Shown piece after piece: positions 1 through 40,124 of a stretch of 64,000 bases of DNA (position 1 is its first letter; every line of letters begins with the position of its first letter). The DNA comes from Laetmonice hystrix (taxonomy: Eukaryota). A program made the position numbers and the translations under genes. Where the stretch lies: contig OZ249436.1 in NCBI GenBank assembly GCA_965235115.1, forward strand, positions 35,590,001-35,654,000, read 5' to 3'. Below the pieces are notes generated by a model. It was not told where the DNA came from, searched no databases, and was given only the letters and a program-made list of their open reading frames with translations.

Positions 1-25
1 ACAAGGTATAGGCCTACGGTAAAGG

Positions 26-213
26 CAGTGGCGGATCCGGAGGGAAGGGGATACGGGGGCTGCCCCCCCCCCCCCCCCGTTTCGAAGTAATCTTTCTTTT
101 TTTTCTGCCTGAAAGGTTCAAACCAAACATACACAACCCCCTGCCAACACCCATAACACCCCCACCCCCCCCCACCCCCACCCCCGGTTAGAGCAAACCC
201 GGATCCGCCCCTG
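26..213. mobile_element. MITE with CAGTGGCGGATCC-type TIRs (hAT-like) in P450 intron 9
   Basis: cagtggcggatccgg ... ccggatccgcccctg inverted termini around a C-rich core. Copies at 11147-11328, 22878-23060 and 34599-34781; related element at 50342-50491. No clear TSD. Confidence 0.65.
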
Positions 214-294
214 CAAGAGTAAACTAAAGAGGGTCTAGATCTATATTTGGACGTGTATAGGGCGTTTCATCCGCGATATCTGTCTAACTTACAG

Positions 295-3871: not shown

Positions 3872-5124
3872 TTCAACCGTGCGTTTGACTTGTCTGTGAA
3901 AGTCTATAGCCTACAACAGCTTCAACAGCGGTCTTGATCATCAAACAGCGAAGCGACCGGAAGTTGGGCCGAGGTTTTCCGAATGCATCAAGACCCTAAC
4001 GGCCCCAGCCACACAGTCAGATACAATCTCCCATAATGCAAAGGGGTTTGCTTCGCATACCGCTCTGCCACACATGCCTTTTACAGGCGAAATCGGGCCC
4101 CTAAGCGTTTAACCCCGTTCTATCAAAGTCGGCCGTGCTGTATGGTATCTGTAAAACTTAACGTACCTCTAAACCCCAAAACCGAAAGTATACCAATTAA
4201 ATGACATTCACCGTACAAGAGAAATACCTGATCAAATATTAGGAACTACATTTGCGGAGGGAAATCAGCTAGTCGCAAGTCGGTCGGGGCAATTTCGGGA
4301 TGATTCGAAATACTTCGGGTGTTTCGGACTACTTTCGGACTAGGTACTTCTGCAGATGATTTCTCCGAATATTTAAATGTTTGTGTGGCATCATATTTTG
4401 AGAGTCTGTGCTTAAAAAGTAAACAAGAGTGCCTCAGCTAATTATAACCAGGAAGCAGCGGTCGAGCAGCCATGATTCGAGCTCGACAATGTTCGGCTGT
4501 TCCGGTCGGGGATTTCTAGGTCAGGTCAGGGGTCACTCAAACGGTTACCCAGTGTGTGGCAGCGATTGAACGAAGAGAACGATCTCTGTCCCGAGACTCT
4601 GGTGCATTTCAATAAAGCCCAAAGATATCTTTGAAAACCTCGCTGGAGCCAGGTGCAAGGTTTTTATTGAAACACTGTATTACCGTGGCCCAGAAGTATC
4701 ATCATTGTTTTTTCTGCATTTAATTTTGATTTTTTTTAACATTTGATTGTAGATGAATTTGATGATGAATAATCCACAGTCTCTAAACCAACACGTTGGT
4801 GGCGAAGGGGTCGGTGGTAGGATTCAGTGCATCAAGGACACTCCGTTCACTTCGATGATCCATTGAAAGTGAGACCGACGTTGGGTGATTTTCGTTGGGT
4901 TCCAAACTGACCGCAAGATGGCGTGTGTGAAGTTACCAGCAGGTGGAGCTAGTTCAAAGCGATTGAAACTATTATTCATTTACTCAATCAACTTATATTA
5001 CCGTGATTGAGAGACTCGAAATAATGGAGTTCCCTCTTTTCCGCGTGGCGGCAGCACTATCGCCTGCGAGTCTCCCAATTGTGCTACTCTGTATGTATCC
5101 CTAAAAGCGCTTTTCCTCTTTAAG

Positions 5125-7016: not shown

Positions 7017-10000
7017 ATGTTGCTGTTGGGCATTGTGGAAATCCCGCTATGGGTCATCCTGGGATGCCTCGCCATCACGATATTCCTCGTGTAAGTAGAG
7101 CACTGACCTATAAACTTTATATTCCCCTAGCCTTGTATGGCGAGCCTTGTATACCCGATCAGTAGGTCAATATATCTATTACTTGGAGACTGAATATACA
7201 CACATATCACGTATATACGAAACACTGCTTCATGCTATAGCTGCTTCGATTTGCTTCGAGTTCAAATACAGTCAATCCTCATTACAATGTAGGCCTATCT
7301 CTCCGACACCTTGAAATAAAGCCGAAAAAAAGTGATCTCTCACCTAATTTTTCTCCGGAGACGGGCGAGCAATGGAGTTTTTAGAAATAGTTTCAGAAGA
7401 GAAGAGGGTGCTTCATCACAGATATGTAATATTGTCCCAATGGGCCACCGATTACCCACCAAACGGTGGGCCTCCTTCTAATTGTTTTCCATCATGCTTG
7501 AAAAGGCCTAGTCTGACTTGGTGCAAGTGGTCTTTTAGGGGTTTTTGATAAAATGGACCATTAGTTCTCTATATCATTGGTCACATCGGAGTGGTTCAAC
7601 CACCAAACTGAAGCATGATTAGTTACTCCTTCGCGATAAGTATAGCTTTGCTTATTTTTCAAAATTTCATACATATGGCATACAATGGGTATATACACAA
7701 AGTATAGGTTTGACTGTAGTCCTTCCCCCTCCCCTCAATGTGTACGGGCATATACACATATACACTCGCAATTTGTAGGCTAAATTAAAGCAGAGAACAT
7801 ACAGTTTAGTCTAAAAATGAGAATTCTCGACATATCGTGCAATGCTCTGACAATAAGCATTCGGTCAGATATTCATGTATAGGTCTCTTTCTTTTTTACA
7901 GTTACAATACGTGGCACTTCAACTTCTTCCGCAAACAGGGCATCCCGGGAGATCGGCCATGGCCAATCATCGGAAATATTTCATTTAGGGGCGATCGCGT
8001 CAAGGTACAGATCAAAAATAGAGTCTACTGATTGAAATGGGCAATAATCAGATCGGGACATATCCAGTGCATGCCACCTGTGCTTTAAATTGTCATGTGG
8101 TTAAACGTAGGGGCCTATACCACATAATGTAGGCTTATCGTTTCAAATTGGCATCATGGGCGACCTGTTTTTTTATCACAGCCGAACGTGATTGGTTGAA
8201 ATGATTGACTCTAAATACTGCCCCCTCTTTACATCCATATCCTCGCATATTATATAGGAATGAAATTATTTTAAAGAAGCAGGGTGTCAAAATGAATGGT
8301 AATGAAATCCAACCGCTATAATTCCAGGAGTACCCGTACATGGAGACCGAAATTCAGGAGAAACATGGGGACATATTTGCGTAGGTATAGTCCTACTGTA
8401 ACCTCACTCGAATCCCGTACTTTGAACCACTGGGCGTGACCTAGAAACCTAGTAGGCCTATGAGAGGGCCCCTAGCTGCTATGTATGCAACACACATCTT
8501 TGGATAGAAGTTTATCCAATAAGCCGGTCGGCCGGCCCGCCGGTCCGTAATGCCGATTCCGAAAATGCATAGGTGTATAGTTGGGCCCATTACAATGAGT
8601 GTAGACATCAATAAGGTACATAATATATCAGCACATACAAATATATCGCAAAATGGTTTCCGATTTTTGTTAACTATGGCCTATAGGCCTACACAAAGGT
8701 GAAGGAAACTATAGGCAAGGATGGGTATTGTCATCTCTTATCCATTGCAGAGAATTCATCGGCCGTATTCCCTGCCTTGTAGTGCACGATGAGAGCTTTC
8801 TATCGGAAGTTTTGGTCAAGAGTTTCCCGGACTTTTGTGATCGATCGGTGAGTGGAAACTACTATAATCTTCAGTCCAGGCCCAGGTTTTAGAAAGCCTC
8901 AAAGCAGCAAACTTGAAGCTAAGCAGGACTACGGTGGCCCATGAGGACAAGGACCTTAACTTTCTACATTGATTTTCATAGATATTTCACGGCAATGGCA
9001 ATATCACCACGGATAAATTATTATCAATATGAAAATATCGATGAAAATAGATCTAGAAAGTTATAAACAATAAAGATCTATATTCCTGGGTTGCCGTATA
9101 GCTCTGCTTAGCTTAAAGCTTGCTGCTTACAGCCTTTCTGAAACCGTGGCCAGATTGTAAACGATATCATTTTCAACCCTTTTCATTCCATAGATTAACG
9201 CATAAATGCATGGAAAATAGGTAACTTTTCCAACAACAACAAAAACGAAGTTAAGCACATTTTAATGAGTTCAACTTTCAGAGTGTACTCAACGGAGACG
9301 AAGTGAGTGATGCTATGCTACTCAACAGTATGGGAGAAAGATGGAAGCGCATGCGCAGTTATATGACCCCAACATTCAGCACTGGTAAACTAAAACAGGT
9401 GAATATCTGTTTCAATCTCATTTCACCAATACAAGTGGTGCATGGAAAGTATCTCAACACTACGATAAGCACTCATTTACACTGGACATCCTGGCATGCT
9501 TGAAACTAAGGAGGCTAATGAGGTTTTCATTTTAGGTGAGAAAACAGGTCTTATTAAAATTGGTGAATTGGGGGTGGGGGGGGGGGTCATAGATATATCC
9601 ATTCCAAACACCTCTCCCATGAGGATAATATACGTTTCAGATGATCCCCGAGATCAACCGGTGTGCTCGGCAGTTGGCCAACAACCTGGCGAAAGAGGCC
9701 GAAAAGGGAGAAACTCTAGACATGCGTGGGTAAGTATTTGGAACTTCAGTAAAACCCTTATAGCCATTATAATGTAGCAGTCTAATAATAAATGAGTCTA
9801 TCTCGCTCACAAATGTCATTGTTAGTTTCTTCTGTTCAAATCCGTAATTAATTATGTAGGCTATGTATTAATCTAATTTGTGTGCAGTTTGACTGGCGCC
9901 TTTTCCATGGATGTCATCGCCAGCACGGCGTTCGGCATGCGGGTGGACTCTCAGAACGATGCCGACAGTGTATTTGTCCAGAAGGCCAAACGCGGCTTTA

Positions 10001-13000
10001 GTCGGTCAATGTTCAACCCTCTCTATCTTCTGGCCTGTAAGGGAATTTGTCTGCTTCAACAGCCATAATACATGATCTAGTATTTCTCTTCTCAGACCGC
10101 CACAAGACAACATTTAGAAACAGATGTTGCTTTTTTATTTAACATCGCAGAGGACGGATATTCTGACATTTTTCTTCATATTTTTCTATAAGCCTATATT
10201 TGAAGTTCAATTCCATTTCATGGAAAGTATTGGTTTAACCCATTAAACTCTATGCATAGATCAATTTGTAATACCCCCCCCCCCCCCAAAAAAAAAGGAA
10301 CAGAAAGCTGGCCTATTGATTTCTTATTACTAGATTCATTAGGCCTAACTATCACCTAGCGGGACACAAAGTAGGCTAACCATGCCCAACATTATGTTTG
10401 TAGTTTTCCTCCCGGCCGCCGTTCCACTGGCAACGAAGTTGGGTCTGAACAGCTTTTTGCCTCGTGACGTCATGGATTTCTTTAGGGACGTAACCCTAAA
10501 AGCAATGGAAGCTCGTAAGACCAACCAAGATCAGGTAATAGGCCTATTATACACATAAAAATAGAATCAACGTCATGACAGATTGGTCCAGACACGTGTA
10601 GATCTATTTATTTAGCAAATGTTGGACGGCAGCGAGTCCACTATACAGTTTACGGGACTTCGAAAAGCGATAATGGCTTCGGCTTCGCCTCGCCGCACTT
10701 TTCTTCGTCCCGTAAACTAAGTCCTATAGTGGACTCACCGCCATACAACATTTGTAGGCCTATCATATAATCGAAAGGGGCCGTCCATCACTTAGGCTAC
10801 GTAACGCGAAATTTTGACCAAACTACATAATGTATGGATCAGGTTGAGCACTGTAGTCTCATATTCTCATAAGGGTGATGTTGATCATGTAGATTTACAA
10901 TCTTTTTGTCTCGTGTATTTCTTTGCAAAGAGTCGTACCGATTTCCTACAATTAGTGATGAACGTTGAGCGGGATGAGAACGTACAGGCAGTGCCAGACA
11001 CCGGCCATGACAAGGACGTAACGAAACCAACTAAAGGTACAACTGTGCTCATTGTCCGCATCTCTCTGCACACCTGAAAGGCCGGAAATTAATACCACGT
11101 TCATTTCGTTCAAACTCTAGCACAAGGTATAGGCCTACGGTAAAGGCAGTGGCGGATCCGGAGGGAAGGGGATACGGGGGTTGCCCCCCCCCCCCGTTTC
11201 GAAGTAATCTTTCTTTTTTTTCTGCCTGAAAGGTTCAAACCAAACATACACAACCCCCTGCCAACACCCATAACACCCCCACCCCCCCACCCCCACCCCC
11301 GGTTAGAGCAAACCCGGATCCGCCCCTGCAAGAGTAAACTAAGGAGAGTCTAGATCTATATTTGGACGTGTATAGGGCGTTTCATCCGCGATATCTGTCT
11401 AACTTACAGGGCTCTCAACGACTGAGATTCTTGCCAACGCTATCCTGTTCTTTATCGCTGGCTACGACACGACTGCCTCGGCAGTTTGTATGCTCCTGTA
11501 CAACTTGGCCCTGAACGACGACTGCCAACAGCAACTCCTACAGGAGATTGATAGCGTTGTGGGAGAGAACGTATGTAATACTGTGTAAACATGCGTGACG
11601 TACAGACGAGATCAATGGACAGAAGGGGCGCGGAAAGAAATATTCAGCTCCTACTTCTCTTTGTGCATGCGTACATAATATTTCTGGTGGCCTCGGTCCC
11701 ATGTAACGAGAAACGTTTTTAGCGTCTAGCTTCAGCCCGACATGAGCTTGGGCACATTAAATACACCTGTACATAACCTACGATAAAACAGGACAAAAAA
11801 GTCAATATACCAAGACTATAGTCTATCTGCCGAAAGTCCATGGTACGGGGTTAAATCCTTGTCATTTTTTCATTAGGACCTGATCACCTATGACATGTTG
11901 TCTGAGATGCCGTACCTGGACCAATGCATTTCGGAGTCCCTGCGCCTTTTCCCGCCTTTGGTTAGGTAAGTATAGCTAGATTGGGATAGGGAATATAGGT
12001 ACTAATATATAAAGATGTAATTTAACGTGGGCTTCTGGCTAAATGCTTGTCCATTCGCATCCTGGGCAACAGCAATATTCTAAATTCAACATGTTCTTGG
12101 ACTATAGAGGAGAAGTAGGCTAAACGTTCGTGAAACCTATCACTCATACCGTTTGTTTATATTTGAGAACATTTAAGGTTATTTTTTGACAGGGCCGATC
12201 GTGAGGCCAAGCGAGACGTCACCATCAATGGGGTCCACATCAAGAAAGGCATGGTTGTAATGATCCCAATATTTGGCATTCACCATGACCCCAAAAAATG
12301 GCCAAACCCCCTAAAGTTTGACCCAACACGGTATGTGGACCCATTAAAACCTATTACTCTATTTCACATTATGAATACGGCCTATGATAGAACTTTAGTA
12401 GATCCAGGATTTTTTAAGGGGTGTGGACCTTTCATATAAGAAAAAAGGGGAAACTGGTGTTGAAAGGGGGTTGAACCCTGCTGGAGCCGCCCTTAGAAAG
12501 AGAACATTCTGTCTAGCCCTTCATGTCCTGATATGCATGAGAAAAACAAATCCAGTGAACAAACCTACAGCCTACAAACTTATAGGTATAGGGCCTAGAA
12601 GTAATACTTTATGTACATGCGTTCGAATAATAAGCTACAACTTTACATTTTTAGATTTTCGCCGAAGAACAAAGCAGGCCGGAATCCTTTCCATTTCTTC
12701 CCGTTTGGAATGGGCCCTCGGAACTGTATTGGAATGCGGCTTGCCCTGGCCGAGTTAAAGATTGCCATGGTTCATGTCTTACGGAAAGTCAAGGTCACAC
12801 CAGCTACAGACACGCCGGTAGGTTTCACGGCTCCCCCCACAAAGGTGGCGGCAAGCAAATTTGAGAACTTTGAAAGTATTTATTGGCAATTGTCGCATGT
12901 CACTTGTGAAATTCTCCTGCTTTGCATGCATGCCTTAATAGTCAACAGTTTGATTCCTCGCTCATATACACTATTATGTCTAGGCTATATAGAGCATAAT

Positions 13001-13137
13001 AGTGAACCATTGTGGGCTCTTTTAACTGTGTCTCTTTGCCGGTGATGCAGTCGCGTGTGAAATTCACTGTGGCACTACTTCTCACTCCCGCTTCGCCCAT
13101 CAAGCTCAACGTTGAGGCCAGGAAGAAATCAAACTGA
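7017..13137 (+). CDS. Cytochrome P450, CYP3 clan, copy 2 (complete, 14 exons, 518 aa)
   Basis: Exons 7017-7090, 7902-8004, 8328-8380, 8751-8847, 9282-9398, 9641-9729, 9888-10036, 10404-10534, 10931-11036, 11410-11570, 11877-11965, 12193-12330, 12655-12817 and 13051-13137 sum to 1557 nt, open frame, all GT-AG. N-terminal anchor MLLLGIVEIPLWVILGCLAITIFLV, Pro-rich GIPGDRPWPIIGN, WKRMR..MTPTFSTGKLK, AGYDTT, ESLR, FGMGPRNCIGMRLA. Confidence 0.95.
8877..9153. mobile_element. MITE with about 60-bp imperfect TIRs in P450 intron 4
   Basis: ggcccaggttttagaaagcctcaaagcagcaaacttgaagctaagcag matches the reverse complement of ctgcttagcttaaagcttgctgcttacagcctttctgaaaccgtggcc; AT-rich core. Copies at 20608-20884 and 32328-32604. 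Confidence 0.7.
10616..10754. mobile_element. Short palindromic MITE in P450 intron 8
   Basis: caaatgttg..gagtccactata..agtttacgggac pairs with gtcccgtaaact..tatagtggactc..caacatttg. Copies at 22347-22485 and 34068-34206. Confidence 0.7.
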
Positions 13138-16166: not shown

Positions 16167-16407
16167 ATTCTCACCTCGGTGGTAATTATTTCACCCTCGG
16201 TGGAAATTATTTCAACCTCGGTGGTAAGTATTCTCACCTTAGTGGAAATTATTCAACCTCGGTGGAAATTATTTCAACCTCGGTGGAAATTATCTCAACC
16301 TCGGTGGAAATTATCCTAACCTCAGTGCTAATTATTCTAACCTCAGTAGTAATTATTTCAACCTCGGTGGAAATTGTTTCAACCTCGGTGGAAATTATTT
16401 CAACCTC
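16167..16407. repeat. 21-bp minisatellite (aattatttcaacctcggtgga)n, about 11 copies
   Basis: Read directly; absent from unit 1. Confidence 0.93.
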
Positions 16408-18747: not shown

Positions 18748-21700
18748 ATGTTGCTGTTGGGCATTGTGGAAATCCCGCTATGGGTCATCCTGGGATGCCT
18801 CGCCATCACGATATTCCTCGTGTAAGTAGAGCACTGACCTATAAACTTTATATTCCCCTAGCCTTGTATGGCGAGCCTTGTATACCCGATCAGTAGGTCA
18901 ATATATCTATTACTTGGAGACTGAATATACACACATATCACGTATATACGAAACACTGCTTCATGCTATAGCTGCTTCGATTTGCTTCGAGTTCAAATAC
19001 AGTCAATCCTCATTACAATGTAGGCCTATCTCTCCGACACCTTGAAATAAAGCCGAAAAAAAGTGATCTCTCACCTAATTTTTCTCCGGAGACGGGCGAG
19101 CAATGGAGTTTTTAGAAATAGTTTCAGAAGAGAAGAGGGTGCTTCATCACAGATATGTAATATTGTCCCAATGGGCCACCGATTACCCACCAAACGGTGG
19201 GCCTCCTTCTAATTGTTTTCCATCATGCTTGAAAAGGCCTAGTCTGACTTGGTGCAAGTGGTCTTTTAGGGGTTTTTGATAAAATGGACCATTAGTTCTC
19301 TATATCATTGGTCACATCGGAGTGGTTCAACCACCAAACTGAAGCATGATTAGTTACTCCTTCGCGATAAGTATAGCTTTGCTTATTTTTCAAAATTTCA
19401 TACATATGGCATACAATGGGTATATACACAAAGTATAGGTTTGACTGTAGTCCTTCCCCCTCCCCTCAATGTGTACGGGCATATACACATATACACTCGC
19501 AATTTGTAGGCTAAATTAAAGCAGAGAACATACAGTTTAGTCTAAAAATGAGAATTCTCGACATATCGTGCAATGCTCTGACAATAAGCATTCGGTCAGA
19601 TATTCATGTATAGGTCTCTTTCTTTTTTACAGTTACAATACGTGGCACTTCAACTTCTTCCGCAAACAGGGCATCCCGGGAGATCGGCCATGGCCAATCA
19701 TCGGAAATATTTCATTTAGGGGCGATCGCGTCAAGGTACAGATCAAAAATAGAGTCTACTGATTGAAATGGGCAATAATCAGATCGGGACATATCCAGTG
19801 CATGCCACCTGTGCTTTAAATTGTCATGTGGTTAAACGTAGGGGCCTATACCACATAATGTAGGCTTATCGTTTCAAATTGGCATCATGGGCGACCTGTT
19901 TTTTTATCACAGCCGAACGTGATTGGTTGAAATGATTGACTCTAAATACTGCCCCCTCTTTACATCCATATCCTCGCATATTATATAGGAATGAAATTAT
20001 TTTAAAGAAGCAGGGTGTCAAAATGAATGGTAATGAAATCCAACCGCTATAATTCCAGGAGTACCCGTACATGGAGACCGAAATTCAGGAGAAACATGGG
20101 GACATATTTGCGTAGGTATAGTCCTACTGTAACCTCACTCGAATCCCGTACTTTGAACCACTGGGCGTGACCTAGAAACCTAGTAGGCCTATGAGAGGGC
20201 CCCTAGCTGCTATGTATGCAACACACATCTTTGGATAGAAGTTTATCCAATAAGCCGGTCGGCCGGCCCGCCGGTCCGTAATGCCGATTCCGAAAATGCA
20301 TAGGTGTATAGTTGGGCCCATTACAATGAGTGTAGACATCAATAAGGTACATAATATATCAGCACATACAAATATATCGCAAAATGGTTTCCGATTTTTG
20401 TTAACTATGGCCTATAGGCCTACACAAAGGTGAAGGAAACTATAGGCAAGGATGGGTATTGTCATCTCTTATCCATTGCAGAGAATTCATCGGCCGTATT
20501 CCCTGCCTTGTAGTGCACGATGAGAGCTTTCTATCGGAAGTTTTGGTCAAGAGTTTCCCGGACTTTTGTGATCGATCGGTGAGTGGAAACTACTATAATC
20601 TTCAGTCCAGGCCCAGGTTTTAGAAAGCCTCAAAGCAGCAAACTTGAAGCTAAGCAGGACTACGGTGGCCCATGAGGACAAGGACCTTAACTTTCTACAT
20701 TGATTTTCATAGATATTTCACGGCAATGGCAATATCACCACGGATAAATTATTATCAATATGAAAATATCGATGAAAATAGATCTAGAAAGTTATAAACA
20801 ATAAAGATCTATATTCCTGGGTTGCCGTATAGCTCTGCTTAGCTTAAAGCTTGCTGCTTACAGCCTTTCTGAAACCGTGGCCAGATTGTAAACGATATCA
20901 TTTTCAACCCTTTTCATTCCATAGATTAACGCATAAATGCATGGAAAATAGGTAACTTTTCCAACAACAACAAAAACGAAGTTAAGCACATTTTAATGAG
21001 TTCAACTTTCAGAGTGTACTCAACGGAGACGAAGTGAGTGATGCTATGCTACTCAACAGTATGGGAGAAAGATGGAAGCGCATGCGCAGTTATATGACCC
21101 CAACATTCAGCACTGGTAAACTAAAACAGGTGAATATCTGTTTCAATCTCATTTCACCAATACAAGTGGTGCATGGAAAGTATCTCAACACTACGATAAG
21201 CACTCATTTACACTGGACATCCTGGCATGCTTGAAACTAAGGAGGCTAATGAGGTTTTTATTTTAGGTGAGAAAACAGGTCTTATTAAAATTGGTGAATT
21301 GGGGGTGGGGTGGGGGGTCATAGATATATCCATTCCAAACACCTCTCCCATGAGGATAATATACGTTTCAGATGATCCCCGAGATCAACCGGTGTGCTCG
21401 GCAGTTGGCCAACAACCTGGCGAAAGAGGCCGAAAAGGGAGAAACTCTAGACATGCGTGGGTAAGTATTTGGAACTTCAGTAAAACCCTTATAGCCATTA
21501 TAATGTAGCAGTCTAATAATAAATGAGTCTATCTCGCTCACAAATGTCATTGTTAGTTTCTTCTGTTCAAATCCGTAATTAATTATGTAGGCTATGTATT
21601 AATCTAATTTGTGTGCAGTTTGACTGGCGCCTTTTCCATGGATGTCATCGCCAGCACGGCGTTCGGCATGCGGGTGGACTCTCAGAACGATGCCGACAGT

Positions 21701-24700
21701 GTATTTGTCCAGAAGGCCAAACGCGGCTTTAGTCGGTCAATGTTCAACCCTCTCTATCTTCTGGCCTGTAAGGGAATTTGTCTGCTTCAACAGCCATAAT
21801 ACATGATCTAGTATTTCTCTTCTCAGACCGCCACAAGACAACATTTAGAAACAGATGTTGCTTTTTTATTTAACATCGCAGAGGACGGATATTCTGACAT
21901 TTTTCTTCATATTTTTCTATAAGCCTATATTTGAAGTTCAATTCCATTTCATGGAAAGTATTGGTTTAACCCATTAAACTCTATGCATAGATCAATTTGT
22001 AATACCCCCCCCCCCCCAAAAAAAAAAGGAACAGAAAGCTGGCCTATTGATTTCTTATTACTAGATTCATTAGGCCTAACTATCACCTAGCGGGACACAA
22101 AGTAGGCTAACCATGCCCAACATTATGTTTGTAGTTTTCCTCCCGGCCGCCGTTCCACTGGCAACGAAGTTGGGTCTGAACAGCTTTTTGCCTCGTGACG
22201 TCATGGATTTCTTTAGGGACGTAACCCTAAAAGCAATGGAAGCTCGTAAGACCAACCAAGATCAGGTAATAGGCCTATTATACACATAAAAATAGAATCA
22301 ACGTCATGACAGATTGGTCCAGACACGTGTAGATCTATTTATTTAGCAAATGTTGGACGGCAGCGAGTCCACTATACAGTTTACGGGACTTCGAAAAGCG
22401 ATAATGGCTTCGGCTTCGCCTCGCCGCACTTTTCTTCGTCCCGTAAACTAAGTCCTATAGTGGACTCACCGCCATACAACATTTGTAGGCCTATCATATA
22501 ATCGAAAGGGGCCGTCCATCACTTAGGCTACGTAACGCGAAATTTTGACCAAACTACATAATGTATGGATCAGGTTGAGCACTGTAGTCTCATATTCTCA
22601 TAAGGGTGATGTTGATCATGTAGATTTACAATCTTTTTGTCTCGTGTATTTCTTTGCAAAGAGTCGTACCGATTTCCTACAATTAGTGATGAACGTTGAG
22701 CGGGATGAGAACGTACAGGCAGTGCCAGACACCGGCCATGACAAGGACGTAACGAAACCAACTAAAGGTACAACTGTGCTCATTGTCCGCATCTCTCTGC
22801 ACACCTGAAAGGCCGGAAATTAATACCACGTTCATTTCGTTCAAACTCTAGCACAAGGTATAGGCCTACGGTAAAGGCAGTGGCGGATCCGGAGGGAAGG
22901 GGATACGGGGGTTGCCCCCCCCCCCCCGTTTCGAAGTAATCTTTCTTTTTTTTCTGCCTGAAAGGTTCAAACCAAACATACACAACCCCCTGCCAACACC
23001 CATAACACCCCCACCCCCCCACCCCCACCCCCGGTTAGAGCAAACCCGGATCCGCCCCTGCAAGAGTAAACTAAAGAGGGTCTAGATCTATATTTGGACG
23101 TGTATAGGGCGTTTCATCCGCGATATCTGTCTAACTTACAGGGCTCTCAACGACTGAGATTCTTGCCAACGCTATCCTGTTCTTTATCGCTGGCTACGAC
23201 ACGACTGCCTCGGCAGTTTGTATGCTCCTGTACAACTTGGCCCTGAACGACGACTGCCAACAGCAACTCCTACAGGAGATTGATAGCGTTGTGGGAGAGA
23301 ACGTATGTAATACTGTGTAAACATGCGTGACGTACAGACGAGATCAATGGACAGAAGGGGCGCGGAAAGAAATATTCAGCTCCTACTTCTCTTTGTGCAT
23401 GCGTACATAATATTTCTGGTGGCCTCGGTCCCATGTAACGAGAAACGTTTTTAGCGTCTAGCTTCAGCCCGACATGAGCTTGGGCACATTAAATACACCT
23501 GTACATAACCTACGATAAAACAGGACAACAAAGTCAATATACCAAGACTATAGTCTATCTGCCGAAAGTCCATGGTACGGGGTTAAATCCTTGTCATTTT
23601 TTCATTAGGACCTGATCACCTATGACATGTTGTCTGAGATGCCGTACCTGGACCAATGCATTTCGGAGTCCCTGCGCCTTTTCCCGCCTTTGGTTAGGTA
23701 AGTATAGCTAGATTGGGATAGGGAATATAGGTACTAATATATAAAGATGTAATTTAACGTGGGCTTCTGGCTAAATGCTTGTCCATTCGCATCCTGGGCA
23801 ACAGCAATATTCTAAATTCAACATGTTCTTGGACTATAGAGGAGAAGTAGGCTAAACGTTCGTGAAACCTATCACTCATACCGTTTGTTTATATTTGAGA
23901 ACATTTAAGGTTATTTTTTGACAGGGCCGATCGTGAGGCCAAGCGAGACGTCACCATCAATGGGGTCCACATCAAGAAAGGCATGGTTGTAATGATCCCA
24001 ATATTTGGCATTCACCATGACCCCAAAAAATGGCCAAACCCCCTAAAGTTTGACCCAACACGGTATGTGGACCCATTAAAACCTATTACTCTATTTCACA
24101 TTATGAATACGGCCTATGATAGAACTTTAGTAGATCCAGGATTTTTTAAGGGGTGTGGACCTTTCATATAAGAAAAAAGGGGAAACTGGTGTTGAAAGGG
24201 GGTTGAACCCTGCTGGAGCCGCCCTTAGAAAGAGAACATTCTGTCTAGCCCTTCATGTCCTGATATGCATGAGAAAAACAAATCCAGTGAACAAACCTAC
24301 AGCCTACAAACTTATAGGTATAGGGCCTAGAAGTAATACTTTATGTACATGCGTTCGAATAATAAGCTACAACTTTACATTTTTAGATTTTCGCCGGAGA
24401 ACAAAGCAGGTCGGAATCCTTTCCATTTCTTCCCGTTTGGAATGGGCCCTCGGAACTGTATTGGAATGCGGCTTGCCCTGGCCGAGTTAAAGATTGCCAT
24501 GGTTCATGTCTTACGGAAAGTCAAGGTCACACCAGCTACAGACACGCCGGTAGGTTTCACGGCTCCCCCCACAAAGGTGGCGGCAAGCAAATTTGAGAAC
24601 TTTGAAAGTATTTATTGGCAATTGTCGCATGTGACTTGTGAAATTCTCCTGCTTTGCATGCATGCCTTAATAGTCAACAGTTTGATTCCTCGCTCATACA

Positions 24701-24869
24701 CTATTATGTCTAGGCTATATAGAGCATATAATAGTGAACCATTGTGGGCTATTTTAACTGTGTCTCTTTGCCGGTGATGCAGTCGCGTGTGAAATTCACT
24801 GTGGCACTACTTCTCACTCCCGCTTCGCCCATCAAGCTCAACGTTGAGGCCAGGAAGAAATCAAACTGA
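18748..24869 (+). CDS. Cytochrome P450, CYP3 clan, copy 3 (complete, 14 exons)
   Basis: Near-identical to copy 2 at offset 11731-11732. Exons 18748-18821, 19633-19735, 20059-20111, 20482-20578, 21013-21129, 21372-21460, 21619-21767, 22135-22265, 22662-22767, 23142-23302, 23609-23697, 23925-24062, 24387-24549, 24783-24869. Confidence 0.95.
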
Positions 24870-27894: not shown

Positions 27895-28135
27895 ATTCTC
27901 ACCTCGGTGGTAATTATTTCACCCTCGGTGGAAATTATTTCAACCTCGGTGGTAAGTATTCTCACCTTAGTGGAAATTATTCAACCTCGGTGGAAATTAT
28001 TTCAACCTCGGTGGAAATTATCTCAACCTCGGTGGAAATTATCCTAACCTCAGTGCTAATTATTCTAACCTCAGTAGTAATTATTTCAACCTCGGTGGAA
28101 ATTGTTTCAACCTCGGTGGAAATTATTTCAACCTC
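27895..28135. repeat. 21-bp minisatellite, unit 3 copy
   Basis: Same array as 16167-16407. Confidence 0.93.
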
Positions 28136-30467: not shown

Positions 30468-33400
30468 ATGTTGCTGTTGGGCATTGTGGAAATCCCGCTA
30501 TGGGTCATCCTGGGATGCCTCGCCATCACGATATTCCTCGTGTAAGTAGAGCACTGACCTATAAACTTTATATTCCCCTAGCCTTGTATGGCGAGCCTTG
30601 TATACCCGATCAGTAGGTCAATATATCTATTACTTGGAGACTGAATATACACACATATCACGTATATACGAAACACTGCTTCATGCTATAGCTGCTTCGA
30701 TTTGCTTCGAGTTCAAATACAGTCAATCCTCATTACAATGTAGGCCTATCTCTCCGACACCTTGAAATAAAGCCGAAAAAAAGTGATCTCTCACCTAATT
30801 TTTCTCCGGAGACGGGCGAGCAATGGAGTTTTTAGAAATAGTTTCAGAAGAGAAGAGGGTGCTTCATCACAGATATGTAATATTGTCCCAATGGGCCACC
30901 GATTACCCACCAAACGGTGGGCCTCCTTCTAATTGTTTTCCATCATGCTTGAAAAGGCCTAGTCTGACTTGGTGCAAGTGGTCTTTTAGGGGTTTTTGAT
31001 AAAATGGACCATTAGTTCTCTATATCATTGGTCACATCGGAGTGGTTCAACCACCAAACTGAAGCATGATTAGTTACTCCTTCGCGATAAGTATAGCTTT
31101 GCTTATTTTTCAAAATTTCATACATATGGCATACAATGGGTATATACACAAAGTATAGGTTTGACTGTAGTCCTTCCCCCTCCCCTCAATGTGTACGGGC
31201 ATATACACATATACACTCGCAATTTGTAGGCTAAATTAAAGCAGAGAACATACAGTTTAGTCTAAAAATGAGAATTCTCGACATATCGTGCAATGCTCTG
31301 ACAATAAGCATTCGGTCAGATATTCATGTATAGGTCTCTTTCTTTTTTACAGTTACAATACGTGGCACTTCAACTTCTTCCGCAAACAGGGCATCCCGGG
31401 AGATCGGCCATGGCCAATCATCGGAAATATTTCATTTAGGGGCGATCGCGTCAAGGTACAGATCAAAAATAGAGTCTACTGATTGAAATGGGCAATAATC
31501 AGATCGGGACATATCCAGTGCATGCCACCTGTGCTTTAAATTGTCATGTGGTTAAACGTAGGGGCCTATACCACATAATGTAGGCTTATCGTTTCAAATT
31601 GGCATCATGGGCGACCTGTTTTTTTATCACAGCCGAACGTGATTGGTTGAAATGATTGACTCTAAATACTGCCCCCTCTTTACATCCATATCCTCGCATA
31701 TTATATAGGAATGAAATTATTTTAAAGAAGCAGGGTGTCAAAATGAATGGTAATGAAATCCAACCGCTATAATTCCAGGAGTACCCGTACATGGAGACCG
31801 AAATTCAGGAGAAACATGGGGACATATTTGCGTAGGTATAGTCCTACTGTAACCTCACTCGAATCCCGTACTTTGAACCACTGGGCGTGACCTAGAAACC
31901 TAGTAGGCCTATGAGAGGGCCCCTAGCTGCTATGTATGCAACACACATCTTTGGATAGAAGTTTATCCAATAAGCCGGTCGGCCGGCCCGCCGGTCCGTA
32001 ATGCCGATTCCGAAAATGCATAGGTGTATAGTTGGGCCCATTACAATGAGTGTAGACATCAATAAGGTACATAATATATCAGCACATACAAATATATCGC
32101 AAAATGGTTTCCGATTTTTGTTAACTATGGCCTATAGGCCTACACAAAGGTGAAGGAAACTATAGGCAAGGATGGGTATTGTCATCTCTTATCCATTGCA
32201 GAGAATTCATCGGCCGTATTCCCTGCCTTGTAGTGCACGATGAGAGCTTTCTATCGGAAGTTTTGGTCAAGAGTTTCCCGGACTTTTGTGATCGATCGGT
32301 GAGTGGAAACTACTATAATCTTCAGTCCAGGCCCAGGTTTTAGAAAGCCTCAAAGCAGCAAACTTGAAGCTAAGCAGGACTACGGTGGCCCATGAGGACA
32401 AGGACCTTAACTTTCTACATTGATTTTCATAGATATTTCACGGCAATGGCAATATCACCACGGATAAATTATTATCAATATGAAAATATCGATGAAAATA
32501 GATCTAGAAAGTTATAAACAATAAAGATCTATATTCCTGGGTTGCCGTATAGCTCTGCTTAGCTTAAAGCTTGCTGCTTACAGCCTTTCTGAAACCGTGG
32601 CCAGATTGTAAACGATATCATTTTCAACCCTTTTCATTCCATAGATTAACGCATAAATGCATGGAAAATAGGTAACTTTTCCAACAACAACAAAAACGAA
32701 GTTAAGCACATTTTAATGAGTTCAACTTTCAGAGTGTACTCAACGGAGACGAAGTGAGTGATGCTATGCTACTCAACAGTATGGGAGAAAGATGGAAGCG
32801 CATGCGCAGTTATATGACCCCAACATTCAGCACTGGTAAACTAAAACAGGTGAATATCTGTTTCAATCTCATTTCACCAATACAAGTGGTGCATGGAAAG
32901 TATCTCAACACTACGATAAGCACTCATTTACACTGGACATCCTGGCATGCTTGAAACTAAGGAGGCTAATGAGGTTTTTATTTTAGGTGAGAAAACAGGT
33001 CTTATTAAAATTGGTGAATTGGGGGTGGGGTGGGGGGGTCATAGATATATCCATTCCAAACACCTCTCCCATGAGGATAATATACGTTTCAGATGATCCC
33101 CGAGATCAACCGGTGTGCTCGGCAGTTGGCCAACAACCTGGCGAAAGAGGCCGAAAAGGGAGAAACTCTAGACATGCGTGGGTAAGTATTTGGAACTTCA
33201 GTAAAACCCTTATAGCCATTATAATGTAGCAGTCTAATAATAAATGAGTCTATCTCGCTCACAAATGTCATTGTTAGTTTCTTCTGTTCAAATCCGTAAT
33301 TAATTATGTAGGCTATGTATTAATCTAATTTGTGTGCAGTTTGACTGGCGCCTTTTCCATGGATGTCATCGCCAGCACGGCGTTCGGCATGCGGGTGGAC

Positions 33401-36400
33401 TCTCAGAACGATGCCGACAGTGTATTTGTCCAGAAGGCCAAACGCGGCTTTAGTCGGTCAATGTTCAACCCTCTCTATCTTCTGGCCTGTAAGGGAATTT
33501 GTCTGCTTCAACAGCCATAATACATGATCTAGTATTTCTCTTCTCAGACCGCCACAAGACAACATTTAGAAACAGATGTTGCTTTTTTATTTAACATCGC
33601 AGAGGACGGATATTCTGACATTTTTCTTCATATTTTTCTATAAGCCTATATTTGAAGTTCAATTCCATTTCATGGAAAGTATTGGTTTAACCCATTAAAC
33701 TCTATGCATAGATCAATTTGTAATACCCCCCCCCCCCCCAAAAAAAAAGGAACAGAAAGCTGGCCTATTGATTTCTTATTACTAGATTCATTAGGCCTAA
33801 CTATCACCTAGCGGGACACAAAGTAGGCTAACCATGCCCAACATTATGTTTGTAGTTTTCCTCCCGGCCGCCGTTCCACTGGCAACGAAGTTGGGTCTGA
33901 ACAGCTTTTTGCCTCGTGACGTCATGGATTTCTTTAGGGACGTAACCCTAAAAGCAATGGAAGCTCGTAAGACCAACCAAGATCAGGTAATAGGCCTATT
34001 ATACACATAAAAATAGAATCAACGTCATGACAGATTGGTCCAGACACGTGTAGATCTATTTATTTAGCAAATGTTGGACGGCAGCGAGTCCACTATACAG
34101 TTTACGGGACTTCGAAAAGCGATAATGGCTTCGGCTTCGCCTCGCCGCACTTTTCTTCGTCCCGTAAACTAAGTCCTATAGTGGACTCACCGCCATACAA
34201 CATTTGTAGGCCTATCATATAATCGAAAGGGGCCGTCCATCACTTAGGCTACGTAACGCGAAATTTTGACCAAACTACATAATGTATGGATCAGGTTGAG
34301 CACTGTAGTCTCATATTCTCATAAGGGTGATGTTGATCATGTAGATTTACAATCTTTTTGTCTCGTGTATTTCTTTGCAAAGAGTCGTACCGATTTCCTA
34401 CAATTAGTGATGAACGTTGAGCGGGATGAGAACGTACAGGCAGTGCCAGACACCGGCCATGACAAGGACGTAACGAAACCAACTAAAGGTACAACTGTGC
34501 TCATTGTCCGCATCTCTCTGCACACCTGAAAGGCCGGAAATTAATACCACGTTCATTTCGTTCAAACTCTAGCACAAGGTATAGGCCTACGGTAAAGGCA
34601 GTGGCGGATCCGGAGGGAAGGGGATACGGGGGTTGCCCCCCCCCCCGTTTCGAAGTAATCTTTCTTTTTTTTCTGCCTGAAAGGTTCAAACCAAACATAC
34701 ACAACCCCCTGCCAACACCCATAACACCCCCACCCCCCCCCACCCCCACCCCCGGTTAGAGCAAACCCGGATCCGCCCCTGCAAGAGTAAACTAAAGAGG
34801 GTCTAGATCTATATTTGGACGTGTATAGGGCGTTTCATCCGCGATATCTGTCTAACTTACAGGGCTCTCAACGACTGAGATTCTTGCCAACGCTATCCTG
34901 TTCTTTATCGCTGGCTACGACACGACTGCCTCGGCAGTTTGTATGCTCCTGTACAACTTGGCCCTGAACGACGACTGCCAACAGCAACTCCTACAGGAGA
35001 TTGATAGCGTTGTGGGAGAGAACGTATGTAATACTGTGTAAACATGCGTGACGTACAGACGAGATCAATGGACAGAAGGGGCGCGGAAAGAAATATTCAA
35101 CTCCTACTTCTCTTTGTGCATGCGTACATAATATTTCTGGCGGCCTCGGTCCCATGTAACGAGAAACGTTTTTAGCGTCTAGCTTCAGCCCGACATGAGC
35201 TTGGGCACATTAAATACACCTGTACATAACCTACGATAAAACAGGACAACAAAGTAATTAAGGGTGAGGTCAATATACCAAGACTAGTCTATCTGCCGAA
35301 AGTCCATGGTACGGGGTTAAATCCTTGTCATTCTTTCTTCAGGACCTGATCACCTATGACAAGTTGTCTGAGATGCCGTACCTGGACCAATGCATTTCGG
35401 AATCCCTGCGCCTTTTCCCGCCCTTGGTTAGGTGAGTATAGCTAGATGGGGATAGGGAATATACATGTATAGGTACCAATATATAAAGATGTAATTTAAC
35501 GTGGGCTTCTGGCTAAATGCTTGTCCATTCGCATCCTGTGCAACAGCAATATTCTAAATTCAACATGTTCTTGGACTATAGAGGAGAAGTAGGCTAAACG
35601 TTCGTGAAACCTATCACTCATACCGTTTGTTTATATTTGAGAACATTTAAGGTTATTTTTCTGACAGGGCCAATCGTGAGGCCAAGCGAGACGTCACCAT
35701 CAATGGGGTCCACATCAAGAAAGGCATGATTGTAATGATTCCAATATTTGGCATTCACCATGACCCCAAAAAATGGCCAAACCCCCTACAGTTTGACCCA
35801 ACAAGGTATGTGGACCCATTAAAACCTATTACTCTAGTTCACATTATTATGTCCTTCTTGGCTTCTTCTTTATAAGCTGTCCATATGAATACCAATACGG
35901 CCTATGATAGAACTTTAGTAGATCCAGGATTTTTTAAGGGGTGGGGACCTTTAATATAAGAAAAAAAGGAAAACTGGTGTTGAAAGGGGGTTGAACCCTG
36001 CTGGAACCGCCCTTAGAAAGAGAGTTACATTCTGTCTAGCCCTTCATGTCCTGATACGCCATGAGAAAAACAAATCCAATGAACTCACTTTAAGACTCTG
36101 GATTGGAGAACAGATGTATCGAAAAATGGGTTCCGTCAATGAAGGACATGATCCTCCATAGCCAGAGAAGTATAGCTTGGTAAATTATATTCTTGGCAGT
36201 GCTGACCCCTCCCTCCCCCAAACCAATTCTTACTCTAAACCCCCCGTCCCCACCCCCTTACCAAAGTCCTGGATCCGCCCGGGCCGGGCAGCCCCTGCTC
36301 AGGGTCTGCTACAAGACGTGGACTCTACCATTCTTTACAAATGCTGGACCGGTCTTTTATGCCTTTTATTCTAAGCCTACAAACTTACAAGGTATAGGGC

Positions 36401-36943
36401 CTAGGAGTAACTTTATGTACATGCGTTCGAATAATAAGCTACAACTTTACATTTTTAGATTTTTGCCGGAGAACAAAGCAGGTCGGAATCCTTTCCATTT
36501 CTTCCCGTTTGGAATGGGCCCTCGGAACTGTATTGGAATGCGGCTTGCCCTGGCTGAGTTAAAGATTGCCATGGTTCATGTCTTACGGAAAGTCAAGGTC
36601 ACACCAGCTACAGACACGCCGGTAGGTTTCACGGCTCCTCCCACAAAGGTGGCGGCAAGCAAATTTGAGAACTTTAAAAGTATTTATTGGCAATTGTCGC
36701 ATGTCACTTGTGAAATTCTCCTGCTTTGCATGCATGCCTTAATAGTCAACAGTTTGATTCCTCGCTCATATACACTATTATGTCTAGGCTATATAGAGCA
36801 TATAATAGTGAACCATTGTGGGCTCTTTTAACTGTGTCTCTTTGCCGGTGATGCAGTCGCGTGTGAAATTCACTGTGGCACCACTTCTCACTCCTGCTTC
36901 GCCCATCATGCTCAACGTTGAGGCCAGGAAGAAATCAAACTGA
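30468..36943 (+). CDS. Cytochrome P450, CYP3 clan, copy 4 (complete, 14 exons; exons 11-14 diverged from copies 1-3)
   Basis: Exons 30468-30541, 31353-31455, 31779-31831, 32202-32298, 32733-32849, 33093-33181, 33340-33488, 33856-33986, 34383-34488, 34863-35023, 35343-35431, 35668-35805, 36459-36621, 36857-36943. Frame and all P450 motifs intact. Confidence 0.95.
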
Positions 36944-37339
36944 CACGCTACACTGGACAATCGAGGCTTCCTTGACCTGAATAATGGGACATGGCCTACT
37001 GATACTGACAGGCCGAGAGTCACTCGGGTACGATGGTACCATAACCAGCATTTTATATATACCTACTTTAGGTTACAAGACAGTAATCCAGCGAAATTTT
37101 TACACTTGTCAACCTTGCTCGCTAGTCTTGCCAGGGCCCTCAGTGTAGGCTAGTGATACACAATAAATTAGGACATGTAAACATCCCTAACAACCGTTAG
37201 TATATAGGCCTATATTCTGAGCCAATTATGTCAAATATAAGTCTTTCTTGACTAGGTAGACATTATCTTTCACATGTAGGCTACTACCGCATGGCAAAAT
37301 AGAAAGGAATACAGACAATTCACAAATAAAGAACCTTGG

Positions 37340-38056
37340 ATCACAACCACTTGCCCATGCATATAATAAACATACATAAGTATATAGCCTAGGCCTATCA
37401 AACGACATTGTGAGCTTACTGTATTGTACAAGAATGCTGATTTTCCTTTCGTGGTAAAGAAACGCGTGTTAGAGTCAGCTTTATTATCTGCCATTTTGTA
37501 CAGCTCCGATGCCTGGCTCACAACTAACCTCAAGACTGCAGAAACCATGTATCACTCTGCGATAACTTATGTAAAAGGTCACATACGCGAGCAGCAAAAT
37601 ACATTAATGAACAAGTGGCTGAGCGAGACCCCATTGGCAGTGACAGCCAAACTTCAGCAGCGAGTTCGCAACAGTACACGAACAAAATTTAAGTCGTACT
37701 TTGAGGAGATCAATCCACAGCTTTCAGTGAACCATGTATATATCTTGACGATTCCAATAACATTCCCGAGAGGCATCGCGTTGTAGTTACTAGACTGAGA
37801 AATACATCACATTACTTGGCAATAGAGACTGGTACCGGTAGGTGGAGCCGCATGTGCTGCCGTTACAAAAAGTTAGAGTTTGCGTCCCCGAGATTTCGTT
37901 TTGTGATGACCCGCTGGTCATGTCATTTCGTCTATTACCGGACCTGACCCTGAATTCATATATGTGCTTTATGTCCCTTATATGTCTGTTTTTGGTCCGT
38001 TTTGTATCCTGCTTTTGCCTGGGTTTAGTCAATAAAGTTTACTTACTTACTTACTT
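37340..38056 (+). mobile_element. LINE 3' end behind copy 4 (internally deleted, frameshifted)
   Basis: Homologous to 2864-3870 with deletions (including the Cys-rich segment) and a short (TTAC)n tail. Confidence 0.72.
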
Positions 38057-39020
38057 ATTCAACCGTGCGTTGGACTTGTCTGTGAAAGTCTATAGCCTAC
38101 AACTGCTTCAACAGCGGTCTTGATCATCAAGACCCTGACGGCCCCAGCCACACAGTCAGCTACAATCTCCCATAATGCAAAGGGGTTTGCTTCGCATACC
38201 GCTCTGCCACACATGCCTTTTTACAGGCGAAATCGGGCCCCTAAGCGTTTAACCCCGTTCTATCAAAGTCGGCCGTGCTGTATGGTATCTGTAAAACTTA
38301 ACGTACCTCTAAACCCCAAAACCGAAAGTATACCAATTAAATGACATTCACCGTACAAGAGAAATACCTGATCAAATATTAGGAACTACAATTGCGGAGG
38401 GAAATCAGCTAGTCGCAAGTCGGTCGGGGCAATTTCTGGATGATCCGAAATACTTTGGGTGTTTCGGACTATAGGTACTTCTGCAGATGATTTGTCCGAA
38501 TATTTGAATGTTTGTGTGGCATCATATTTTAAGAGTCTGTGCTAAAAGTAAACGAGAGTGCCTCAGCTAATTATAACCAGGAAGCAGCGGTCGAGCAGCC
38601 ACGATTCGAGCTCGGCAATGTTCGGCTGTTCCGGTCGGGGATTTCTAGGTCAGGTCAGGGTCACTCAAACAGTAGTACCCATATGTGTGGCAGCGATTGA
38701 ACGAAGAGAACGATCTCTGTCCCGAGACTCTGGTGCATTTCAATAAAGCCCAAAGATATCTTTGAAAACCTCGCTGGAGCCAGGTGAGAGGTTTTTATTG
38801 AAACACTGTATTACCGTGGCCCAGAAGTATCATCTTTGTTTTTTCTGCATTTAATTTTGATTTTTTTAACATTTGATTGTAGATGAATTTGATGATGAAT
38901 AATCCACAGTCTCTAAACCAACACGTTGGTGGCGAAGGGGTCGGTGGTAGGATTCAGTGCATCAAGGACACTGCGTTCACTTCGATGATCTATTGAAAGT
39001 GAGACCGACGTTGGGTGATT

Positions 39021-39278
39021 TTAAATGGTAGAAGTTAGAGCTATAGTTACTATTAAACACTAATAGGAAGATACACATGATCTTTCATTTCAGACCAAGA
39101 TTTATTACGTAGCCTGACGTGCCACCTCATAATTACGCTATTGGCATCTTTTAAAGCTTATAAGTCATTAACTGCGCAAGATTGAACCATAGTTTAGTTA
39201 CCCTACTCAGAACATGTCATATATCACGTGAATCCCCGGGGATGGGATCAATTGTGGTATCGCCACAACGTGTCTAGT
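39021..39278 (+). mobile_element. 3' end of a Helitron-like non-autonomous element
   Basis: Reverse complement of about 54118-54371. Ends in a small hairpin (gtggtatcgccac) followed by CTAG|T. Confidence 0.55.
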
Positions 39279-39288
39279 TTTTCCCTGT

Positions 39289-39614
39289 AATTTCCACCTC
39301 GGTGGTAATTATTTCAACCTCGGTGGTAAGTATTCTCACCTTGGTGGAAATTATTCAACCTCGGTGGAAATTATTTCAACCTCGGTGGAAATTATCTCAA
39401 CCTCGGTGGAAATTATCCCAACCTCAGTGCTAATTATTCTAACCTCAGTAGTAATTATTTCAACCTCGGTGGAAATTGTTTCAACCTCGGTGGAAATTAT
39501 TTCAACCTCGGTGGAAATTTTTTCAACCTCGGTGGAAATTATTTCAACCTCGGTGGAAAGTATTTCAACCTCGGTGGTAATTATTTCAAGCTCGGTGGAA
39601 ATTATTTCAACCTC
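39289..39614. repeat. 21-bp minisatellite, longer version (about 15 copies)
   Basis: Same unit, with the same internal variant copies (cctcagtgctaatt, cctcagtagtaatt) as in units 2 and 3. Confidence 0.93.
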
Positions 39615-40124
39615 ACTGTATTATTCGGCCTAACTGTGTTGTTTGCTTGGGTATTAGGGCAGCCATTACCATGCAGGGACTCCTCACTGTACTGTTTGGC
39701 CTCCCTGTACTGTTTGGCCTCACTGCACTGTTTGACCTCACTGTACTGTTTGCTTGGGTACAAGGGCAGCCTCACTGTACTGTTTGGCCTCCCTGTACGG
39801 TTTGGCTTCACTGTACTGTTTGCTTGGGTACAAGGGCAGCCAGTACCATGTAGGGACGCCTCACTGTACTGTTTGGCCTCCCTGTACGGTTTGGCTTCAC
39901 TGTACTGTTTGCTTGGGTACAAGGGCAGCCAGTACCATGTAGGGACGCTTCACTGTACTGTTTGGCCTCCCTGTACGGTTTGGCTTCACTGTACTGTTTG
40001 CTTGGGTACAAGGGCAGCCAGTACCATGTAGGGACGCCTCACTGTACTGTTTGGCCTCCCTGTACGGTTTGGCTTTACTGTACTGTTTGCTTGGGTACAA
40101 GGGCAGCCAGTACCATGTAGGGAC
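39612..40124. repeat. 89-bp minisatellite built from 18-bp subrepeats
   Basis: ctcactgtactgtttggcctccctgtacggtttggcttcactgtactgtttgcttgggtacaagggcagccagtaccatgtagggacg recurs at about 39771, 39860, 39949 and 40038, with more degenerate copies upstream. Confidence 0.92.

Follow-up and report, generated by a model that had tools for sequence, protein, structure and literature searches.

An intragenic identity switch in the last copy of a tandem cytochrome P450 array of Laetmonice hystrix, and possible hybrid genes upstream of it

The window analysed here is a stretch of 64,000 nucleotides (nt) from Laetmonice hystrix (GenBank assembly GCA_965235115.1, contig OZ249436.1, positions 35,590,001 to 35,654,000 of the forward strand); positions below are counted from its first letter. 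Self-alignment showed that the window opens within a tandem array whose repeating units measure about 11.7 kb. We aligned the units and defined the exons, which gave a cytochrome P450 gene of 14 exons. Copies 2, 3 and 4 are whole and copy 1 is visible from intron 9 onward, so that the array holds at least four copies in total. All three whole copies (3/3) have an open 518-residue frame with GT-AG at 13/13 introns. Over the 1080 nt of exons 1–10, copies 2–4 show 0 differences, and copy 1 has the same exon 10. The part of the gene after intron 10 exists in two forms, termed here the A-type tail (copies 1–3) and the B-type tail (copy 4). Further P450 exons were looked for in the window beyond 37000 and none was found. 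The copies lie as follows.

1..2022 (+): copy 1, partial, intron 9 to stop codon; 685 nt like copy 4, then an A-type tail
295-455, 762-850, 1078-1215, 1540-1702, 1936-2022 (+): copy 1, exons 10-14; visible protein part equal to that of copy 3
7017..13137 (+): copy 2; 14 exons, 518 residues, A-type tail, private E440K
18748..24869 (+): copy 3; 14 exons, 518 residues, A-type tail
30468-36943 (+): copy 4, whole gene; exons 1-10 at 30468..35023, exons 11-14 at 35343..36943
30468-30541, 31353-31455, 31779-31831, 32202-32298, 32733-32849 (+): copy 4, exons 1-5; coding sequence equal to copies 2 and 3
33093-33181, 33340-33488, 33856-33986, 34383-34488, 34863-35023 (+): copy 4, exons 6-10; coding sequence equal to copies 2 and 3
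35343-35431, 35668-35805, 36459-36621, 36857-36943 (+): copy 4, exons 11-14; B-type tail

The identity of the gene was examined by profile, motif and similarity searches. Three of the four exons tested (10, 12 and 13) passed the cut-off of Pfam p450 (PF00067), a profile that exon 7 did not match. The heme motif with its Cys, the K-helix ExxR, the I-helix AGxDT, the PERF-like motif and the C-helix were all present in 3/3 whole copies. Exon sizes of 53, 89, 149, 161, 89 + 138 and 163 nt are reminiscent of vertebrate CYP3A exons. In a search of PDB, the best 14 of 38 matches to exon 12 were CYP3A4, CYP3A5 and CYP3A7. Exon 11 alone had CYP51 as its best match. The nearest full proteins in a HMMER search reached at most 43.6% identity, the best one being an unnamed protein, and the named near matches were 'CYP3A' proteins of Lingula (a brachiopod) and oyster (a bivalve) at 38–40% identity. 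The I-helix motif of P450s is given in PMC4229089, which also sets formal membership of a CYP family at 40% or more identity to named members. Judged by its best matches, the array gene is predicted to be a clan 3-like (CYP3A-like) P450 of the detoxification type; clan 3 enzymes have flexible sites, and their substrates are both foreign and own compounds (PMC4229089). Twenty-eight metagenome loci considered as close relatives were at most 57% identical and were set aside.

Copy 4 changes its identity abruptly within intron 10, as seen in the following features.

34598..34782: small element resembling a miniature inverted-repeat transposable element, with 16-nt inverted ends and a C-rich core, in intron 9 of all four copies, 470 nt before the switch
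35024..35268 (+): switch zone, intron 10; 35024-35253 holds 2-3 differences, where the downstream rate would give about 9
36085..36373: B-only block, intron 12; in public contigs as two versions

The first fixed difference of copy 4 is a 15-nt block present in this copy only (35254-35268). Comparison of copies 3 and 4 gave 7 substitutions in 6781 aligned nt before 35254 and, between there and the stop codon, 37 in 1333 nt, so that divergence of copy 4 rises from 0.1% to about 2.9% (Fisher p 7e-23 for the contrast; p 2e-7 when restricted to exons). An earlier reading of the letters alone (the sequence-only reading) had copy 4 matching copies 2 and 3 through exon 10 and diverging abruptly at about 35255, with about 14 substitutions in exons 11–14 and some 290 bp extra in intron 12, and the alignment bears this out. 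In the 477 nt of exons 11–14, copy 4 differs by 13 substitutions from copy 3 and by 15 from copies 1 and 2. Intron 12 is 653 nt long in copy 4 and 324 nt in the other copies, the net excess of 329 nt being composed of a block of about 289 nt, another of about 46 nt, and small indels. Exons and introns after the switch are equally diverged (13/477 versus 24/856). Seven amino-acid differences separate copy 4 from copy 3 (residues 367, 392, 411, 431, 438, 499 and 508), all within the last 158 of 518 residues. A sharp intragenic identity switch within a tandem array, as in chimeric P450s, is present at 35254.

A repeat pair marking the switch itself was looked for and none was found. Variants between copies 2 and 4 concentrate near the switch (5 in 678 nt versus 4 in 6103 nt, p 9e-4), while between copies 3 and 4 the raised density in the 680 nt before it is not significant (p 0.15). 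The 680-nt zone was picked after viewing the data, and a crossover hotspot near the switch is only suggested. As a separate observation, introns 9 and 12 (34598-34782 and 35921-36275) carry short elements that have G/C-rich cores and inverted ends related to one another; in copy 4, the B-only block provides an arm complementary to 35921-35946.

The divergence of copy 4 continues past the gene, through the 3' flank to about 39022 and a 21-nt minisatellite. Compared with the spacers of copies 1–3, this flank shows 97 substitutions in 3309 nt and 36 indel events. Because the difference runs past the gene, and the flank is homologous up to the minisatellite, each spacer can be described as an A-type 3' flank, a junction and a 5' flank. 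The features of flank and spacers are these.

36944..39614: 3' flank of B type, differing by 2-4.5% from the copy 1-3 spacers; ends in a 21-nt minisatellite
39023-39282: repeat piece in the B-type flank; second instance at 54114-54371
39290-39614: 21-nt minisatellite of the B-type flank, 15.5 units
16173..16407: 21-nt minisatellite, 11 units; ends at the duplication junction 16407/16408
27901..28135: 21-nt minisatellite; ends at the duplication junction 28135/28136, where 3' flank is joined to 5' flank
5003..5004: 622-nt deletion in the spacer of copies 1-2, equivalent of 16120-16741; 2-nt microhomology

The 622-nt deletion, some 2 kb before the start codon of copy 2, takes out the duplication junction together with the minisatellite. 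At 39290-40124 the 21-nt minisatellite passes straight into an 89-nt one made of 18-nt subunits. The A-type flank also contains a 261-aa open frame without a Pfam match (25699-26484, +, with equivalents in each spacer); it is broken by indels in the B-type flank (37342-37853) and by sequence reading resembles the end of a long interspersed nuclear element.

Variation among the repeat units was analysed for phase, taking a tail, the following spacer and the next head as the unit; three such units were compared. Of 20 variable sites, 9 join units 1 and 2 against unit 3; of the others, 7 set unit 1 apart and 4 set unit 2 apart. With 9 of 20 sites pairing units 1 and 2, the geometry fits an amplified segment of tail, spacer and head. 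At four of the nine grouping sites (36483, 37001, 35100 and 35141) the unit-3 letter is found in copy 4 or copy 1, and the letters of units 1 and 2 are therefore shared-derived. Tail variants are common to copies 1 and 2 and head variants to copies 2 and 3, which would place the break of the latest duplication between 35141 and 36483. That interval makes up 11% of the unit, and the latest break would thus lie in the same part as the main switch. Each copy carries private changes. Among the A tails, 8 of 11 variable events fall in 530 of 4305 nt (p 4e-4), in a tract that is not a B tract; the A tails vary as if A had alleles of its own.

Public sequencing data were available as four runs (X1–X4) from one sample and one study, in the form of assembled contigs from which minor variants are dropped. 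These were compared over 29400-39280, and the listing covers 40 of the 343 rows for substitutions, 12 of the 149 for indels and 15 of the 107 joints. Run X4, of unrecorded kind, is RNA-like and holds a spliced contig. The A tail is the main DNA path (depth 131–168 in X1), and the B-only block of intron 12 forms a separate contig with a depth of 54 in X1, 56 in X3 and 22 in X2. This contig has 0 differences from copy 4 in 464 nt in X1, 4 differing letters in X3, and in X2 both 3 letters and 12 gap positions; the choice of B version is reversed between the runs at 37116. We read these data as two B tails in the sample, about 1% apart and at about equal depth, probably one per chromosome. A haplotype switch at about 35.2 kb, an objection that the sequence-only reading had raised against its own model, is unlikely: the contigs of one sample hold the A tail together with two B tails.

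Run X4 contains a spliced contig of 1748 nt in which exons 7 and 10, with 0 differences, are joined to B-type exons 11–14. At 9 of the 10 coding sites listed for exons 11–14 it carries the letter of copy 4; it has two differences from copy 4 in exons 13–14, and represents a majority path rather than a single molecule. A-type 3' contigs are present in X4 too (37399-37415, 37560 and a joint at 37092-37170), and both tails appear to be transcribed. Contigs cannot link an A tail to a particular 5' half. The 261-aa frame of the A-type flank overlaps the 3' contigs of X4, and those contigs may therefore partly derive from other copies. A ranking of A and B expression was dropped because contig depth is unable to rank them. 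One X4 contig matches only the exon 7 stretch 33357-33396 and is unlike it on both sides, and is likely the transcript of a distant paralogous P450.

Contig depth, which is no copy number, was also compared between the two halves of the gene. The mean 5' depth was 144 in X1 (5 contigs) and 145 in X3 (3 contigs), and the A and B tail depths sum to about 177–214 (A estimates of 113–150, with 60–64 assumed for B); X2, whose 5' depth of 74–146 has a twofold spread, was excluded from the ratio. Read roughly, these depths would correspond to two B tails, some four A tails and four to five heads of the window type, and the 5' shortfall is a hint of a diverged 5' half in some copies. All 12 of the 12 contig ends tested in the 5' part lie at sites invariant among the window copies, while 4 of 4 control ends in the tail lie at known variants; about seven 5' ends at homopolymers or repeat elements were left out of this test. 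The sample therefore contains other 5' sequence, which could be a second allele, an A parent or repeats.

The explanation that we favour, with modest confidence, is that the inner copies are hybrids with a B head and an A tail, produced by unequal crossing-over between members of an older tandem A–B pair. A and B, about 3% apart and either paralogs or former alleles, would have stood in tandem, A then B, joined at the 21-nt minisatellite. A misaligned crossing-over in intron 10 would have duplicated the segment of A tail, spacer and B head, and further unequal exchanges would have increased the copy number, at least one of them with a second break in the interval 35141-36483. Its chief consequence would be a larger amount of enzyme made from the B promoter, the C-terminal third being slightly altered. 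The same A–B crossover had been put forward in the sequence-only reading. Its amplified segment does behave as a 3' end, a spacer and the next 5' end, and the two close versions of the copy 4 tail fit B as a locus of its own. An upstream copy with diverged exons 1–10 is predicted by that reading; copy 1 is not this parental A in its visible part. The B alleles are about 1% apart and A is 2.9% from B, an arrangement that three neutral alleles at a single locus would show with a probability of about 0.20. In Drosophila Cyp12a4/5 the chimera lies between its parents, the same three-gene layout as proposed here (PMC4040991).

Several points weigh against hybrid inner copies. The A 5' half was not observed. 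Copy 1 has 2 substitutions relative to copy 4 in the 680 nt aligned over the 685 visible nt before the switch, and an A-type tail after it, the same visible 5'/3' make-up as in copies 2 and 3. Since copy 1 is B-like over these 685 nt, a parental A would have to lie further left or have been converted. Word-index searches for an A-type parent among protein relatives, using exons 7 and 10, returned 1 and 37 candidates, respectively, none of them significant. A and B may also be alleles rather than paralogs: 2.9% with indels is the size of an allelic difference in a polychaete, heterozygosity in Platynereis dumerilii being 3.2% (PMC12257675); PMC1868934 speaks of extreme heterozygosity in a qualitative statement only. 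The ratio of nonsynonymous to synonymous change (dN/dS 0.36, from 7 + 6 changes) does not separate the models. The 5' depth deficit and the extra contig ends would equally fit a diverged allele on the other chromosome, or repeats, and among the 40 of 343 variant rows listed none is a diverged 5' exon letter. A diverged first copy would support the A–B crossover only if it switched at the same place (intron 9–10), because an outer copy may carry a foreign end.

The main rival, which we consider less likely, is an allelic swap, in which an allele A was recently duplicated in tandem and an ordinary intron-10 crossover with an allele B then replaced the tail of the last copy and everything downstream. 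Copies 1–3 would then be pure A and copy 4 the sole recombinant, an ordinary mix of two alleles. Such a swap predicts the identical pattern inside the window, and copy 1 is indeed like the other copies in all visible sequence. Divergence of 2.9% with 36 indels in 3.3 kb matches polychaete heterozygosity (PMC12257675), exons are as diverged as introns (the 13/477 and 24/856 given above), and an exchange of ends with other alleles would be expected at the outer copies of a young array in a polymorphic species. On the other hand, the two B versions resemble each other closely and stand well apart from A, which for three alleles has the chance of about 0.20 already given, and the variable tract among the A tails is not a B tract. 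The ratio of A-tail to 5' depth, estimated by hand at about 0.8–0.95, is nearer to the 0.76–0.84 of an A parent than to the 0.67–0.73 of a swap, which argues weakly in the same direction.

We consider it unlikely that an older A–B pair instead had its 5' halves homogenized, by conversion or repeated unequal exchange, so that all copies share exons 1–10. The inner copies would then be mosaic by ancestry, with the same protein as the first copy, and nothing new would have been made. Consistent with homogenization, copy 1 is B-like from intron 9 to intron 10, and differences between copies cluster in tracts (copy 2 versus 4, and the tract in the A tails), a mark of repeated exchange. Diverged 5' sequence is suggested, in contrast, by the 12 contig ends left unexplained and by the 5' shortfall in the rough depths, and conversion would not usually yield a clean tract as long as the 7 kb between the junction and intron 10. 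Finally, false duplications are a known assembly error, the 7 kb before the switch are 99.9% identical between copies, where assemblers may slip, and among the listed DNA contigs none bridges the switch with B letters, but an assembly artefact, whether a haplotype switch near 35.2 kb or falsely duplicated copies, is very unlikely given the private changes in each copy and the 622-nt deletion in one spacer, A-type contigs two to three times deeper than B-type in X1 and X3, the two B versions, which make a B end likely on either chromosome, so that an A-to-B change would not arise from a phase slip, and the spliced 1748-nt contig, a majority path, that ties exons 7 and 10 to B-type exons 11–14.

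What the two tails may do differently was considered residue by residue. Residue 392 is D in the A tail and N in the B tail and stands just before an Arg aligned with a conserved Arg of CYP3A5; it would occupy the place of CYP3A Glu374 in substrate recognition site (SRS) 5. Residue 499 is presumably part of SRS6, as the C-terminal loop is commonly called. Neither exon 14 (E-value up to 10) nor exon 13 (E-value up to 1e-10) found a match in PDB. The A letters are the commonest among database matches at residues 392 (D, 35/154) and 431 (K, 74/176); being common among relatives, they give no reason to regard either tail as decayed. Polarizing the seven changes was tried and abandoned, the relatives being too distant. 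In pig CYP3A29, E374A raised cooperativity, while turnover of two substrates was not significantly altered (PMC4153680). Exon 13 of copy 2 (12655-12817) encodes a Lys at residue 440, by the PERF-like motif, that is found only there, Glu being present in 165/225 aligned relatives; E440K may weaken copy 2. The likeliest effect of the array would be on gene dosage, with a slight shift in substrate handling. That a hybrid may have a new enzyme activity, as was proposed in the sequence-only reading, is suggested only by analogy with other systems. Decidedly improbable is a selectively amplified and expressed CYP3A-like hybrid that joins the B promoter and head to an A tail differing at the substrate-site residue 392, with a substrate range unlike that of either parent, made repeatedly at a hotspot around intron 10.

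The rest of the window contains other features. On the minus strand, a 309-aa open frame (stop to stop, 45974-46903) matches the rhodopsin family 7tm_1 with E 1e-34; it represents a G-protein-coupled receptor gene or a large exon of one, 9 kb downstream of the array, and is not amplified. Broken reverse-transcriptase frames at 42122-42861 (−), of which 42508-42861 matches RVT_1 below the cut-off, look like a decayed retroelement. Tandem arrays of 50-nt (17 copies) and 148-nt (4 copies) units, together with an inverted repeat, lie at 48962-49812, 51386-51988 and 56184-57440; the inverted repeat is 498 nt long, 98.8% identical, and has 151-nt internal repeats.

The mechanism is not new in either case, as chimeric P450s from unequal crossover are well known. 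In the human CYP11B1/B2, CYP2D6/2D7, CYP2A6/2A7 and CYP21A1P/A2 pairs, intronic unequal crossover of tandem P450s has given hybrid and multiplied genes. The parents there are unequal in their regulation or their activity, or include a pseudogene, unlike what is seen here, where the A and B parents are barely more different than alleles. A search of mainly open-access papers, in their main texts, found no description of this locus. If the inner copies are hybrids, the array would be a clean young example of P450 clusters making new enzymes, in a marine invertebrate rather than in pest insects or patients, and with the hybrid in several copies. If instead an allelic swap occurred, the locus is a caution that, in animals whose heterozygosity is about 3%, the last copy in a young array can resemble a separate paralog.

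Among systems known in polymorphic or recently duplicated loci, Ciona CYP2U1c is also a young, near-identical tandem array of whole P450 genes in a polymorphic marine invertebrate, and its copy number differs between haplotypes; it belongs to the CYP2 family, has up to 23 whole-gene units and evidence of selection via introgression, and the available text describes no chimera (bioRxiv 10.64898/2026.10.01.755871). Tandem expansions of P450s are reported from corals as well (PMC12314368). Anopheles ace-1 offers a possible route to A–B neighbours, since two different alleles stand in tandem on one chromosome, but its amplicon is 203 kb long and not a P450, and the available text mentions no intragenic switch (PMC5137868).

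The closest likenesses are with insect chimeras. In Drosophila melanogaster Cyp12a4/Cyp12a5, non-allelic recombination between tandem P450 neighbours gave chimeras that stay beside the parental sequence, with a copy number that varies in the population and a shared breakpoint region (PMC4040991). Both parents are known there as distinct genes, and haplotype correlates with lufenuron resistance (PMC4040991); here, in contrast, the tails differ at 7/158 residues, at least three hybrid-type copies stand in a row, and one parent is unseen. Cyp6a17/23 is another chimeric P450 from unequal crossover (PMC4040991). CYP337B3 of Helicoverpa armigera is likewise a P450 chimera, attributed to unequal crossing-over of adjacent genes, with repeated crossovers in one region (PMC6211633). 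The differences listed among its variants number 3 to 11 amino acids, comparable to what separates the A and B tails here (PMC6211633). Unlike the present array, CYP337B3 segregates in place of a two-gene haplotype (PMC4040991), and with several origins it gained a fenvalerate metabolism absent from both parents (PMC6211633). If an amplified hybrid of new substrate range did exist in Laetmonice, it would be a wild, non-insect counterpart of CYP337B3 in which the hybrid itself has been amplified.

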